Origin: an uncultured Thermoplasmata archaeon
GTDB lineage: Archaea > Thermoplasmatota > Thermoplasmata > Halarchaeoplasmatales > Halarchaeoplasmataceae
Reading direction: 5' to 3'
Length of the DNA: 64,000 nucleotides
Assembly (NCBI GenBank): GCA_964399335.1
Contig: CAYNQI010000001.1
Coordinates: forward strand, 24,361-88,360
Shown here: piece after piece, positions 34,283 to 43,655 of the stretch
Numbering within the stretch: the stretch's first letter is position 1
How the letters are laid out: the number at the start of each line of letters is the position of its first letter
Position numbers and translations under genes: made by a program
Notes under the pieces: generated by a model
What the model was told of the DNA's origin: nothing
Seen by the model: only the letters and a program-made list of their open reading frames with translations
Database searches by the model: none

Positions 34283-35452
34283 ATGACCAACGTAGAATTT
34301 GGAATATGTGGAGATTTGGACCCTCATAAAACACCTAATGAGTTGAATCCACTGCCCACTTTAAAAAAAGACGATGTCGGAAAAATGCTGCTCAAGTTGA
34401 ATAGAAAACCCATGGAGAAAAGTCAGTTAATGGAAGAGTATGATAACCTTAAAGGTGATATAGATAAGTTGCTAAAACTAGGGGCATTGAGGGAAGACGA
34501 TAAGGTTTATGTTAATTTCACTCTTTTAGATGCTGAAGATTCGCGTTTTATCTTCGAGGAATGCGAACCTTTTGCCAAAGACCTTTCCGAATTTATTCTA
34601 GAACGGGAAGATGATATTTTTGCAGTACTAACTCAGTACAAGAATCCACATGTACCTAAAGAAAAGTTAGCATTTTTCATAATAGGTTGTTATCTACTTG
34701 ACTGGGGGTCCTTAGAATTGTTCCGGATGTGGGATGTTGCTGATAACAAAAAACCACAACCTGGAGGAAATGAATACACTTTATGGGGAGAAGAAGAGGT
34801 CGACCAGATGTTGAAAAGGATCTACTGGGGTGGACACGCTCTTAAAACTGGAGACTACATGTTTCACACTTTTGGCGATCATCACGATTATGCTCAAAGA
34901 TATGCTCTACCCGACCTTTTGCATGTTTTTCCAGATTTCGATTTTCAAGGTGGAGAGGAGTATGAAAGAGTACTGTTTGATAAACGCAAAGAAATGGCTA
35001 TAGAATTAGGAGAGATTTTGGATACTTTATACCAAAATGAAAATTTGAATCACGATAAAGGTAACCTTGTGGATTTTCTTAAGAAGATAGATTATATAGA
35101 AGATCAAGATGGACTCAAAGTGAACATACCATATTTCACAGAAGAAGAAGTTCCAATCATCGTGGAAGCTATCAAACCGATAATACCAGAGCTTAGGAAA
35201 TGGGTTGATACTGAAATGCCTATTTTAAAGAAGAAACTTAAACCGATCAGACCACTTCAAAACGGAGTCTCTTTTGAGGAGGTTTTCATCCAAGTGTGGC
35301 ACGTGGTCTTCGGACTTACCAACAAGCAACTAACAGAAGCTGGTATGTTCTACGATACCTACCAAGGTGGAATGGGATATTTGCAGGCTCTTTTTAAGGG
35401 CGATGTTTCAAAAATGGTTTTGAACGATTTATTGGATATCGGCATAGTTTAA
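34283..35452 (+). CDS. Hypothetical protein with an internal two-fold duplication
   Basis: Long acidic ORF; both halves share an L.K...(L/I)..DD..(Y/K)VN(F/I)...(D/T).E pattern. Confidence 0.75.
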   Translation: MTNVEFGICGDLDPHKTPNELNPLPTLKKDDVGKMLLKLNRKPMEKSQLMEEYDNLKGDIDKLLKLGALREDDKVYVNFTLLDAEDSRFIFEECEPFAKDLSEFILEREDDIFAVLTQYKNPHVPKEKLAFFIIGCYLLDWGSLELFRMWDVADNKKPQPGGNEYTLWGEEEVDQMLKRIYWGGHALKTGDYMFHTFGDHHDYAQRYALPDLLHVFPDFDFQGGEEYERVLFDKRKEMAIELGEILDTLYQNENLNHDKGNLVDFLKKIDYIEDQDGLKVNIPYFTEEEVPIIVEAIKPIIPELRKWVDTEMPILKKKLKPIRPLQNGVSFEEVFIQVWHVVFGLTNKQLTEAGMFYDTYQGGMGYLQALFKGDVSKMVLNDLLDIGIV

Positions 35453-35511: not shown

Positions 35512-36069
35512 ATGGTTCTAATGCTTGAAAGAGAAGACGTCAAAAAAGTGAAAGACCTCTTGCTCGAGGGAGAAGAGACATCTGATATAGCAAAAAAATT
35601 AGACTGTGATTTTGAAGAGATACAGGATGTAATTGGATTGGAGACAGTGATTGCTGATGAGATATCCCAAGAAAAGCAGTCCAAAGCTTTCAAAGGATTT
35701 TCAGAAGGTAAAAAACCCGTAGATTTGGTGGAAGAAAAACTCCTTAACATCGATGAAGCCGGCCTCCTCTACAAAAAATATGAAGAACTATCTAAACTCG
35801 GAGAAACTAAAGATGATGATAAAAAATCACTTGAAAAATTATCAACACAGATCGGGTTGTTGGGCAGTAGACTATCGAGAATTGAACTTAAGGTTATGAA
35901 TTCTAAACTTCTGCCCGAAACCCAGAAATGCAGTAAATGCCGCTCAGAATCATCGTACAGTGTTGGCGTTGTCTGTTCTAATTGTAACGAAATCGATATG
36001 CTCCAGGATGAGAAGAAACCTGCAGATATTGTTGAAGGTATTCAGAATCTTATCCAGAATAAAAAATAA
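35512..36069 (+). CDS. Hypothetical protein: HTH-like N-terminus, coiled coil, C-terminal zinc ribbon
   Basis: ETSDIAKKLDCDFEEI (HTH-like), CSKC...CSNC. Confidence 0.65.
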   Translation: MVLMLEREDVKKVKDLLLEGEETSDIAKKLDCDFEEIQDVIGLETVIADEISQEKQSKAFKGFSEGKKPVDLVEEKLLNIDEAGLLYKKYEELSKLGETKDDDKKSLEKLSTQIGLLGSRLSRIELKVMNSKLLPETQKCSKCRSESSYSVGVVCSNCNEIDMLQDEKKPADIVEGIQNLIQNKK

Positions 36070-36073
36070 GATA

Positions 36074-36334
36074 TTATTCTTCTTCGTTCTCTAAAATAGT
36101 TTTTACCATACGTTTACCTTGATCTAAACGATCCAACCACATATTTTCACGTACTGGTTTCCAACGATTATTTTCAAAAACTGCGTTCAAACCTGCCTTC
36201 ATAGCGTCAGTTCCTTTCTGACGAATAAACTCTATTCTTTCTTTTTCAGACATCTCTTCAGCGATCTCCATCTTCTCGTCAAAGTCGAAATCGTTAAATG
36301 TTGATTGCTGGACTCTTTCGGGCATAGTTATCAC
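36074..36334 (-). CDS. Small acidic hypothetical protein
   Basis: ORF fills the gap, typical composition, no family recognised. Confidence 0.6.
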   Translation of the reverse strand: MITMPERVQQSTFNDFDFDEKMEIAEEMSEKERIEFIRQKGTDAMKAGLNAVFENNRWKPVRENMWLDRLDQGKRMVKTILENEEE

Positions 36335-36385: not shown

Positions 36386-38236
36386 TCAAGTTCGATCGAT
36401 ACTACCATCCAATACTTTCATTTCCCGTTCAAGGATGCTGATCTCTCTATCTTTCAAAGCAGATGGGCTAACAGTTATCAAAAATACAGTGTCCGTTTCA
36501 GAAACCATATCGATCATATGCCTTAAAAACTGCATAGTAGCATCAAATCCAGTATGGCTGACCAAGTATTCAATCCCGTCGAGCAAGATGACCTTTCCTT
36601 CTTCGATAATCTCTTCAAATCTATATGTTATGCTTTCCAGGTTTGGACGAACTGTCTTTATGTTTTCACTCTCTCTATTAGATAGCCAAAATATTTCTGC
36701 ATCATCTAAATAATATTCCTTTGCGATCATATTTGGATTTATTCTTGAAATAATGTATACTTTACCCCCTTCCTGAAGTATATTTTCTAATATACTGAAT
36801 CCTTTATCTGGACGTTCTTCCTCGATGATATAGCTGACACCGGGTTGTAGCTCTTGGGAATTAAAATTGGAAGATGAAGCCATTTCTTCCTCAAAATGGT
36901 GCCTAAGACTATCTTTTACAGCATCTAAGGTGATCTCTTGATTTAACAAACTTGAAAAAGCCAGTATTCGGTTGATAGCGCCTTCAATCTCCCTTACATT
37001 CTTTGTGATGTGGGTCGCTAAAAATTCTTTTATCTCGTCAGATACATCCAATCCCTGCTGTTTAAGCTTTTCTTCGATAATTTTCAGCCTTGTTTCATAA
37101 GAGGGGGGTTCTATCCTAATAACCAGTCCCGATTTAAAACGAGATACCAATCTTTCCTTTAGATCAGGTATATCTTCGGGAGGCCTATCTGAAGTAAGTA
37201 TGATTTGACAGTCCTCATTATTAAGATGATTGAAAAGATAGAAAATTATCTCCTGGTGTTTTTCTCTATCGGCTAGAAATTGTATATCGTCTAAAAGAAG
37301 TATATCCGCACCATAATATTTACCTCTTAATTCTTCAGATTTTTCGTCTCTTAAACTCGTTATAATCTCTGAAGTACAATTTTCGGTGGTAGAATAAACG
37401 ATGTTTAATTCGGGACGATTTTCTTTTACATAATGTCCAATTGCCTTAAGGAGGTGAGTCTTTCCCAAACCAGACTCACTCGTTAGAACTAGCGGACTGA
37501 ATTTTCTTCCACCTGATCGAACGATTTCCTTTGATGCAGCAAATGCCAATTTATTATTCTCCCCAACCACATAGTTTTCAAAGGTATACTTTCTAGGAAA
37601 ATCAGATCCATTTACCTTCTTACCTGTCCTATCTTTGATGATCATATCGTAAACTTCTAATTCCTTATCATCCCTATGCTTCTTATGGATATCTTCGGTG
37701 ATCTGCTTAGATTCTTCTGATATATTTACATTTTCACTTTCTTCAGAAATTTCCTCCTGGATACTTTTGGTTTCTGTATCTATTTGATCGAACAGTTCCT
37801 GCTTCTCTTCAGATTTTTCCTTTTGCTCTTTCTCAATACCTTCATCCTCAATTTCAAGTATCTCTTCGATACTTTCTTTTTTATCAGGTTTAGATGGTAA
37901 ATCGTCCTCCTTTACCCTTCCCCCGACTTTTTTGATCAAATCATCTATATTGACATTGGTATGTACTTCTAAATATATCTCATCCATATCATCTATACCC
38001 ATGATCTTTAAAAATGCCTCATTTCCTTTGATCTCCATATTAGAAGGAGTGTAAAGGAGTGCATTCATTGGAGATCCATCCTTAAGTGTGATATAGCCTT
38101 CAAGCTCATCATTTAGGGTTATCCTGATATAACCCTGAAAAGAATATTTTTTTAGTTTTTCGAGGGTTTTTGAAAGTTCCCCAGGGCCCTTTTTATCTTG
38201 TATTTTCAGTCCTTCGGGAAATTTTTTCCTTGGCAA
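36386..38236 (-). CDS. DUF2226/PATAN-like + DnaA-type AAA+ ATPase (domain III only) + DUF835 fusion protein
   Basis: YTFENYVVGENNKLAFAA, SESGLGKTHLL, LLLDDIQF, ILTSDRPP, ERLVSRFKSGL, NVREIEGAINRI; C-terminal VILLDGIEYL...LEREM (DUF835); no DnaA domain IV. Confidence 0.85.
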   Translation of the reverse strand: MPRKKFPEGLKIQDKKGPGELSKTLEKLKKYSFQGYIRITLNDELEGYITLKDGSPMNALLYTPSNMEIKGNEAFLKIMGIDDMDEIYLEVHTNVNIDDLIKKVGGRVKEDDLPSKPDKKESIEEILEIEDEGIEKEQKEKSEEKQELFDQIDTETKSIQEEISEESENVNISEESKQITEDIHKKHRDDKELEVYDMIIKDRTGKKVNGSDFPRKYTFENYVVGENNKLAFAASKEIVRSGGRKFSPLVLTSESGLGKTHLLKAIGHYVKENRPELNIVYSTTENCTSEIITSLRDEKSEELRGKYYGADILLLDDIQFLADREKHQEIIFYLFNHLNNEDCQIILTSDRPPEDIPDLKERLVSRFKSGLVIRIEPPSYETRLKIIEEKLKQQGLDVSDEIKEFLATHITKNVREIEGAINRILAFSSLLNQEITLDAVKDSLRHHFEEEMASSSNFNSQELQPGVSYIIEEERPDKGFSILENILQEGGKVYIISRINPNMIAKEYYLDDAEIFWLSNRESENIKTVRPNLESITYRFEEIIEEGKVILLDGIEYLVSHTGFDATMQFLRHMIDMVSETDTVFLITVSPSALKDREISILEREMKVLDGSIDRT

Positions 38237-43289: not shown

Positions 43290-43655
43290 GTGGTTATTAT
43301 GACACCGAATACAATAGAAAGTTTATTAGATAATATCAAGGAAAATCTCGATGTGGATGAAGTAACTTTAATATCTAGAAGTGGAATGCATATCGGGGGG
43401 GATGTTCCAGAGAATGCACATCTGGAAACTTTTGTAGCTATGTCTGCAATATTATTAGGGTCCGCTGAAACAGCTACCTCAGAATTAAAAGAAGAGCTTT
43501 CACACGTTATAGTAGAACTTAAAGAATCACGTGTCCTAGTCATGAATGATGGTCCTCAGGCTTTATTAGCAATCAAAATGCCTAAGAGTTCTGATATAGA
43601 AAAGGTTTTAAAGGGTTTAGAAGAGCCAATAGAAAAACTGAAAGACCTTTTATAG
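43290..43655 (+). CDS. Roadblock/LC7 (MglB-like) protein
   Basis: LISRSGMHI, FVAMSAILLGSAE, VIVELKESRVLVM..G..ALL. Confidence 0.9.
   Translation: MVIMTPNTIESLLDNIKENLDVDEVTLISRSGMHIGGDVPENAHLETFVAMSAILLGSAETATSELKEELSHVIVELKESRVLVMNDGPQALLAIKMPKSSDIEKVLKGLEEPIEKLKDLL

Follow-up and report, generated by a model that had tools for sequence, protein, structure and literature searches.

A DnaA-type AAA+ module, probably in a non-replicative architecture, between a predicted PATAN-like fold and a DUF835 domain in an uncultured Thermoplasmata archaeon

What does the ATPase engine of DnaA do in an archaeon? DnaA is the textbook initiator of chromosome replication in bacteria and is not expected in archaea. 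A gene carrying a DnaA-type module was found in a 64,000-nucleotide stretch of DNA (the whole stretch is hereafter called the window) from an uncultured Thermoplasmata archaeon (GenBank assembly GCA_964399335.1, contig CAYNQI010000001.1, positions 24,361 to 88,360 of the forward strand). The source genome is a metagenome-assembled genome (MAG) of 1.57 Mb, 80% complete and in 212 contigs. The gene encodes a protein of three domains (the fusion protein), which is probably a DnaA-lineage AAA+ ATPase in a non-replicative architecture. An earlier reading of the letters alone (the original prediction) had pointed to the locus, and its claims were followed up here. The gene is an uninterrupted open frame of 616 codons, and its TTG start aligned with the Met of the orthologues, which begin M[PS]RKKFPEG. 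The parts of the gene, in window coordinates, are as follows:

36386..38236, minus strand: DnaA-III/DUF835 fusion gene, 616 aa, TTG start; PATAN-like domain, linker, DnaA domain III with lid, DUF835
37907..38224, minus strand: N-terminal PATAN/DUF2226-like predicted fold, residues 5-110 (AlphaFold2 model and Atlas fold search)
37595..37906, minus strand: acidic linker rich in Glu, Lys and Ser, residues 111-214 (AlphaFold2 confidence and alignment)
37118..37594, minus strand: DnaA domain IIIa, the AAA+ base, residues 215-373 (Pfam Bac_DnaA, 3e-55; fold match to 8bv3 and 2z4r)
36896..37117, minus strand: DnaA domain IIIb, the lid, residues 374-447, with sensor II R415 in NVREIEG (weak Hda_lid and AAA_lid_14)
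36410..36841, minus strand: DUF835 domain, residues 466-609 (Pfam DUF835, 3e-28; KaiC/RecA-like alpha/beta)

The central module was assigned by profile, sequence and fold comparison. Pfam matched Bac_DnaA (PF00308) to residues 215-373 (E 3e-55, 187 bits), and Hda_lid (residues 382-442) and AAA_lid_14 weakly to the lid. The top match among PDB sequences was Bacillus subtilis DnaA (8btg/8bv3; E ~1e-67), with about half of the residues identical over 215-445 and an alignment reaching residue 446, followed by the DnaA proteins of T. maritima and A. aeolicus, by Hda (E 1e-9) and by DnaI (6e-3). The predicted central domain was superposed on 8bv3 with TMt 0.92 and a root-mean-square deviation (rmsd) of 1.9 Å, and on 2z4r with TMt 0.94 and 1.5 Å. 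The Hda model TIGR03420 scored 108.5 bits against a cut-off of 194.8, DnaC/IstB (PF01695) scored 25.7 bits beneath the 187-bit DnaA match, and the NCBIfam models for DnaC, DnaI and IstB stayed far under their cut-offs. The AAA+ part is DnaA-type, and not Hda, DnaC or IstB, which agrees with the grouping made in the original prediction. The DnaA-specific motifs that it had read from the letters were all present and in order: YTFENYVVGENN, SGLGKTHLL, DDIQF, TSDRPP, RLVSRFKSGL and NVREIEG. Domain IIIa carries Walker A (S253-T260), Walker B (D316/D317), sensor I (D350), box VII (R362) and the arginine finger (R366), with the initiator-specific helices within 284-308 (in the model, two helices after strand 2, at 284-296 and 298-308).

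The join between the domains was checked, as a chimera at the junctions would have undone the original prediction. A database protein identical to the fusion protein over 616 aa was found on seven contigs from independent assemblies, and 137 homologues share the fusion; an assembly chimera is therefore excluded. The homologues belong to a set of 267 collected proteins that were sorted with local hidden Markov models (HMMs): 114 N-domain-AAA-DUF835, 23 AAA-DUF835, 74 bacterial AAA-domain IV, 41 tandem AAA-AAA (Gemmatimonadota) and three giants with the N-domain and one AAA. The fusion family has invariant residues in all three domains. A word-indexed search returned about 90 clusters with both DnaA-III and DUF835 (30-75% identity), ahead of bacterial DnaA; these clusters were named Thermoplasmatota, Thermoplasmata or Candidatus Saliniplasma, with one Aenigmatarchaeota MAG. 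The G+C content of the gene resembles that of the remainder of the window, and both the fusion gene and the strong Bac_DnaA domain are single-copy in the source genome. An AlphaFold2 model of the full-length protein (92 homologues) was confident in all three domains (mean predicted local distance difference test, pLDDT, 87), and its predicted TM-score (pTM) of 0.58 suggests a flexible arrangement of the domains.

DnaA domains I and IV are missing. The NCBIfam DnaA equivalog model TIGR00362 scored 308 bits against a cut-off of 343.9 and aligned only over its positions 53-343 of 437, so both ends are absent. In Pfam, DnaA_N (PF11638) was absent from the fusion protein, and Bac_DnaA_C (PF08299) was found neither in the protein nor in the 80%-complete genome. 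Across Pfam and NCBIfam, the fusion protein had no helix-turn-helix (HTH), SAP or domain IV match, and a home-built domain IV HMM matched 0 of the 137 fusions. The gap between the lid and DUF835 is about 18 residues, so the statement that the protein runs from the lid straight into DUF835 stands.

Residue conservation was compared between the 137 fusions and 74 bacterial DnaA proteins (E. coli numbering; fusions given before bacteria). The catalytic and oligomerisation residues were kept, the Walker A and B, sensor I and II and arginine-finger positions in at least 94% of the fusions: Walker A K178/T179 (135/137; 74/74), Walker B D235/D236 (135-136/137; 74/74), sensor I D269 (129/137; 73/74), box VII R281 (119/137; 74/74), the arginine finger R285 (129/137; 74/74) and sensor II R334, which is R415 here (134/137; 74/74). 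The first Walker A Gly, read as Ser in the original prediction, is Ser253 in this protein; the position is Ser in 114 of the 137 fusions and Gly in 69 of the 74 bacterial proteins, and by alignment the change from Gly to Ser is a signature of the fusion family. At the single-stranded DNA (ssDNA) contacts, the V211 position is Ile in only 36/137 fusions, against I/V in 74/74 bacterial proteins, and K243 is K/R in 74/137 fusions, against 73/74. The initiator-specific helices carry deletions in some homologues. Selection therefore maintains ATP turnover and the arginine finger between protomers, and does not act consistently on the ssDNA-binding surface. With its ATPase and arginine finger conserved and its ssDNA contacts relaxed, the family is less like an initiator than like a switch or scaffold.

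At the C-terminus lies a genuine DUF835. Pfam aligned PF05763 over its full length to residues 474-606 (E 3e-28, 98.7 bits against a gathering threshold of 33.1), and the model of the domain (pLDDT >90) has alternating beta and alpha elements, with invariant columns at Y469, R498, W517, L518, L533, E534, F564 and R572. Weak matches to ArlH/FlaH, which are KaiC-like ATPases, were obtained (E 6e-4 to 8e-3), and weak NACHT and nSTAND matches lay beneath the DUF835 match. After strand 1 the loop has the sequence EERPDKG, with no GK[ST] P-loop; no match to the active KaiC-like ATPase family PF06745 was found in the fusion protein at E<=1, and DUF835 alone, searched against PDB sequences, yielded no meaningful match. 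The description of the domain as an inactive KaiC-like fold is upheld by these matches, and DUF835 has been listed as an inactivated KaiC ('iKaiC') of archaeal signalling proteins, with REC-DUF835 response regulators known from Methanomicrobia and Thermoplasmata (Galperin et al., 2018; PMC5847659). In the source genome, eight DUF835 matches were found by Pfam and about ten open frames by local HMM. The DUF835 domains of the fusions fall into a separate subfamily that also takes in the SAP-DUF835 and PATAN-DUF835 proteins; by local HMM these reach E 1e-42 to 1e-49, and other paralogues only 1e-17 to 1e-29. On two contigs of the source genome (C16:16095-21678 and C192:2-1706), DUF835 genes lie near KaiC-like ATPase genes, one of the DUF835 proteins being 1388 aa long; this proximity is in line with a DUF835-KaiC partnership.

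The N-terminus had been proposed to be DUF2226/PATAN-like, and the proposal drew support from the predicted fold and none from profiles. The domain has the layout beta-alpha-beta3-alpha-beta-alpha, with invariant P7, G9, G35, Y36, G54 and H92, and was found by local HMM in 114 of the 137 fusions. An AlphaFold2 model of residues 1-116 (18-sequence alignment, pLDDT 91.5) matched predicted ESM Atlas clusters of PatA_N (PF14332) and DUF2226 (PF09987) with template modelling (TM) scores of 0.79-0.85 and rmsd 1.9-2.6 Å over 107-115 residues, and the Atlas's own model of the domain gave the same outcome. The Pfam scan of the whole protein assigned no family to residues 1-214; residues 1-116 in isolation had no Pfam match at E<=10 and no NCBIfam family, and 27 homologues gave no DUF2226 or PatA_N match in Pfam at E<=5. 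Among solved structures, Foldseek against the PDB returned nothing at E<=1e-3, and a wide VIA-align comparison returned unrelated folds (best Z 5.5) and no solved match. No short proteins with the N-domain were retrieved by the word-indexed search. The linker that follows is disordered at residues 116-143 (pLDDT <50) and has helices at 139-163 and 174-204; its length and content vary among relatives, some of which carry a CxxC..CxxC zinc ribbon within it.

The relation between the three domains was also seen in relatives from which one of them is missing. In one family of the same class (f7), the called open reading frames of 335-356 aa consist of the N-domain (local HMM 1e-8 to 1e-12) and a DUF835 of the same subfamily (~1e-43) with nothing in between, and in these genomes the DnaA domain was not found at E<=1e-25:

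L107:5277-6293, minus strand: PATAN-like and DUF835 gene without the DnaA module
L108:5800-6807, plus strand: PATAN-like and DUF835 gene without the DnaA module
L109:5248-6255, plus strand: PATAN-like and DUF835 gene without the DnaA module
L110:5637-6707, plus strand: PATAN-like and DUF835 gene without the DnaA module

These genes occupy the slot that holds a fusion gene of 660-740 aa in three other families (f8-f10). Both sides share the flanking genes: an AP-endonuclease-like gene (50% identity), a convergent double zinc-ribbon gene (46-49%), ThiC (72%), GyrB (71-75%) and GyrA (73%); the DUF835 part of the gene itself is 53% identical between them. One and the same orthologous gene therefore occurs with and without some 400 residues (linker and DnaA-III), which makes the DnaA module a cassette set into a PATAN-DUF835 scaffold gene of archaea. 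It looks as though a PATAN-DUF835 gene that already existed received a DnaA cassette, and not as though an initiator was decorated. The original prediction had an initiator ATPase being turned into a switch; the residue pattern fits its switch or scaffold, and the direction of the event would have to be turned round.

In four other genomes (G094, G150, G129 and G190) the fusion is split, a DnaA-III gene being followed by a DUF835 gene in an operon placed after the genes for ribosomal protein S2 and Memo:

L069:9360-10178 and L069:10513-11793, both minus strand: split pair; likewise in L070, L071 and L072

The split DnaA-III protein begins with an amphipathic segment (MGxxDRL...KKK) that is followed by a coiled coil. 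Whether the module is fused, split off or lost, the partners are the same ones, and this argues strongly for joint action of DnaA-III and this subfamily of DUF835.

The distribution of the module is patchy. A strong Bac_DnaA domain (E<=1e-25, a threshold at which, among the control genomes, only the ten bacterial ones matched) was found in 44 of 401 sampled Thermoplasmatota genomes, from 27 of 162 genera. Some Thermoplasmatota genomes (G162, G089) have 6-8 separate DnaA-III genes, a paralogous expansion. A tree of 131 AAA+ domains was built with IQ-TREE (LG+G4, 233 columns, short search). It placed 43 of 44 bacterial DnaA proteins in one cluster (SH-aLRT 91) and the archaeal fusions outside it, in several well-supported groups with deep and weak connections; no bacterial phylum enclosed the fusions. 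E. coli DnaC and Hda were rejected as a root, their branches being long (2.7-2.9 changes/site) and Hda jumping into the split group. With DnaA present throughout bacteria and only scattered through a single archaeal phylum, the horizontal acquisition proposed for the module is no more than the parsimonious direction; the tree sets the archaeal proteins inside no bacterial phylum, and its root cannot be relied on. The source genome encodes two proteins with Cdc6_C (Orc1/Cdc6), on contigs other than that of the fusion gene, in keeping with the expectation that archaea initiate replication with Orc1/Cdc6.

Two small genes accompany the fusion gene in the window:

36074..36334, minus strand: small acidic protein, 83-86 aa, about 50 nt downstream of the fusion gene on the same strand
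35512..36069, plus strand: zinc-ribbon protein, 185 aa, with IGLLGSRLSRIELK and then CxxC-x11-CxxC, convergent with the fusion operon

The acidic-protein gene, which is probably co-transcribed with the fusion gene, is kept beside it in L012-L015 (76-84% identity) and L057 (49%), and its product had no Pfam or PADLOC match. The 185-aa zinc-ribbon gene is single-copy in the genome and always stands beside the fusion gene within this clade; the type was found at nine loci, down to fusion orthologues of 40% identity, and both small genes accompany the fusion in relatives down to 45-49% identity. The zinc-ribbon gene of L057 (46% identity) and that of L016 run in the direction of the fusion gene and overlap its stop codon. 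No Pfam or NCBIfam family was matched by the 185-aa protein, and an Atlas search with it leaned towards HTH proteins (TM 0.28-0.37, low-confidence model), which is taken as a lead only.

Other lineages have other zinc-ribbon neighbours. A different protein, with a double ribbon and helical repeats (type 2), takes the same position in L061-64, L080, L081 and L107-110, and multi-ribbon proteins take it in L079 and L083. A Rosetta-stone link at sequence level was sought and rejected, as the HMM of the 185-aa protein matched neither the zinc ribbons of the linkers nor the type-2 neighbours. The type-2 neighbours also contain a helical module seen at the N-termini of the split DUF835 proteins (small database, E 1e-4 to 5e-9), a match that compositional bias may inflate and that serves as a lead only. 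In two distant relatives (L080:11790-17794 and L081:12127-18301), a KaiC-like ATPase gene (PF06745) lies two genes from the fusion and is followed by genes for a 312-380-aa protein and for large CARDB or Pilin_N surface proteins. In one clade only, gyrB and gyrA lie within 2 kb of the fusion gene; this linkage as a relic of the bacterial dnaA-gyrB region was left as speculation, since it is confined to that clade and gyrBA of the source genome is on another contig (C30). The wider gene order (Na/Ca exchanger, TraB-like, DUF368, PHP, DUF447, Roadblock) is ordinary family-level synteny, kept across genera to orthologues of 40-47% identity, which argues against a mobile element. The window also has a plus-strand gene for a 389-aa protein beside the zinc-ribbon gene (34283-35452), present only in the closest relatives (L012, L013, L015) and without a Pfam, NCBIfam or PADLOC match. 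A stand-alone Roadblock/LC7 gene (43290-43655, plus strand) lies about 5 kb from the fusion gene and keeps its place to L082 (40% identity); the Atlas fold search lists archaeal proteins that unite a PATAN-like fold with Roadblock/LC7.

The explanation towards which we lean, with modest assurance, is that the protein belongs to the DnaA lineage without being an initiator and serves as an ATP-gated adaptor that associates with itself, within a network of the KaiC or zinc-ribbon type. The DnaA-III cassette would bind ATP; ATP-bound cassettes would associate head-to-tail via the arginine finger R366, by analogy with DnaA; the assembly would cluster the PATAN-like and iKaiC (DUF835) modules with their partners, for which the adjacent zinc-ribbon protein and KaiC-like ATPases are candidates; and ATP hydrolysis would disassemble and reset it. 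Replication would be expected to start from the two Orc1/Cdc6 proteins of the genome. A bolder form of this adaptor has an appreciable chance of being right but is held tentatively. It would make the cassette a portable ATP-driven polymerisation module, inserted into a PATAN-DUF835 adaptor that Thermoplasmatota already had. With its own zinc-ribbon partner and with KaiC-like ATPases, the product would make up an archaeal regulatory machine of a kind not described before, and would be the first protein of the DnaA lineage to function outside replication. A possible task of such a machine would be to connect the KaiC network with the nucleoid or with a system for polarity or surface structures. 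In favour of the adaptor in general, PATAN domains from regulators of cyanobacteria are reported to bind the type IV pilus motor (bioRxiv 10.1101/2021.06.11.447907). Several points weigh against the adaptor. Its oligomerisation, partner identity, cellular output, filament formation and signalling are what we infer; the PATAN/DUF2226 call compares predicted with predicted structures and applies at the level of the fold; and the source genome has no KaiC-like gene near the fusion locus, the closest orthologue (~70% identity) of the KaiC gene of L080/L081 lying at the end of contig C35. The remaining points bear on DNA. The residues I292, R324 and K326, which correspond to E. coli V211, K243 and R245, are kept in this fusion protein; the split DUF835 protein of G094 (L069) has a SAP domain (E 1e-10); another family (f25) has DnaA-III proteins of about 430 aa and separate DUF835 proteins with SAP-like sequence; and a zinc-ribbon gene lies immediately downstream of the fusion gene in most lineages. 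Together these make a DNA-bound role possible.

These last points belong to a rival that we regard as rather unlikely, though with a real share of the probability, in which DnaA-III forms an ATP-dependent filament on ssDNA or stretched DNA and serves chromosome organisation, repair, or the control of replication or transcription, without being an initiator. It would be targeted in trans or in cis by the zinc-ribbon neighbour, the linker zinc ribbons or the SAP-DUF835 partners, and the gyrase genes near the fusion in one clade and the HTH-leaning lead for the 185-aa neighbour would also suit it. Family-wide, however, the ssDNA-contact positions are not conserved; zinc ribbons and SAP also occur as protein-binding or generic modules; the gyrase linkage is clade-specific; and HTH, SAP and domain IV are absent from this protein. 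The claim that no DNA-binding domain is present thus holds for the protein itself and is too broad for its surroundings: a link to DNA stays in play because of the SAP and zinc-ribbon associations and the ssDNA residues retained here. A role in replication, either as an Hda- or DnaC-like regulator acting on Orc1/Cdc6 or MCM or as a true bacterial-type initiator, is improbable. The module does belong to the initiator clade of AAA+ and keeps the arginine finger, and some relatives are labelled 'chromosomal replication initiator protein DnaA' by automatic annotation; but domains I and IV are absent, the genome has no Bac_DnaA_C and two Orc1/Cdc6 genes elsewhere, and the Hda score falls well below its cut-off (108.5 against 194.8). 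A core replication factor would, moreover, not be dispensable in the way that the patchy occurrence (44/401 genomes) and the cassette-free f7 orthologue imply. Weak NACHT and nSTAND matches and small uncharacterised flanking genes could point to mobile-element cargo or a STAND-like anti-virus defence NTPase, which we hold to be very improbable: the STAND matches lie under the stronger DUF835, synteny extends across genera, the gene is single-copy with the G+C of the window, and PADLOC returned nothing relevant for the fusion protein (best, mad8, E 1.6e-5, over 70 residues of the AAA+ core). Finally, that the gene is an artefact (an assembly chimera, a pseudogene or a decaying remnant of a transfer) can practically be dismissed; no supporting point was found beyond the source being an 80%-complete MAG in 212 contigs, and 616 open codons, the identical protein on seven contigs and 137 fusions with invariant residues in three domains speak against it.

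The adaptor reading can be placed among known systems. Domain III and the lid are about 45-50% identical to those of bacterial DnaA (8BTG/8BV3, 2Z4R, 1L8Q/2HCB/3R8F), and the nucleotide-binding and arginine-finger motifs and initiator-specific helices are all present. Unlike bacterial DnaA, the fusion protein lacks domains I and IV, stays under the equivalog cut-off, has another linker and a Ser at the first Walker A Gly, carries PATAN-like and DUF835 domains on either side of the DnaA part, and resides in an archaeal host with Orc1/Cdc6. A precedent for a non-initiator is Hda, which derives from DnaA domain III, no longer binds DNA boxes and acts by protein contacts. It differs in being short (domain III only, without PATAN or DUF835) and in working with the bacterial beta clamp, whereas the fusion protein has 616 aa and two further domains; and its similarity to the fusion protein (TIGR03420; 5X06, 3BOS) is far weaker than that of DnaA (1e-9 against 1e-67). 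With archaeal signalling proteins the fusion shares the DUF835, but its input is a DnaA-type ATPase and a PATAN-like domain in place of a receiver or PAS domain. Residues 4-116 resemble, as predicted models, the PATAN/DUF2226 fold of bacterial polarity and motility regulators and of archaeal proteins; these have profile matches where the N-domain has none, and the likeness is one of predicted fold only.

No paper on this DnaA-III/DUF835 architecture was found in the literature that was searched. New here are the cassette-free orthologous locus and the quantified loss of ssDNA-contact conservation, as well as the split forms with a SAP domain or an amphipathic helix and the 185-aa zinc-ribbon partner specific to one clade. 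An archaeal phylum has long kept a DnaA ATP engine with about 50% identity and intact catalytic residues, in surroundings that rule out origin recognition. Because orthologous genes occur with the cassette, without it and split, they offer a natural experiment on DnaA domain III alone, and the fusion is a new input to the poorly understood archaeal KaiC/DUF835 network. Database names of the relatives include 'DnaA/Hda family protein' and, at the other extreme, the misleading 'chromosomal replication initiator protein DnaA', a label that flags a systematic misannotation. To our knowledge, none of the host organisms has been cultured, and the value of the finding for now is that of a clearly testable hypothesis.

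DnaA-III without domain IV is also found in bacteria. About 41 Gemmatimonadota proteins of ~650 aa (P0079-P0092 and P0127-P0218) carry two DnaA-III copies in tandem; one of them (P0137) is RMH68997.1, named 'AAA family ATPase'. These tandem proteins mix with the archaeal split and f25 proteins in the tree and, unlike the fusion protein, are bacterial, have two DnaA-III copies and lack PATAN-like and DUF835 domains. Gemmatimonadota giants of 1876-1990 aa carry two DnaA-III copies far apart.

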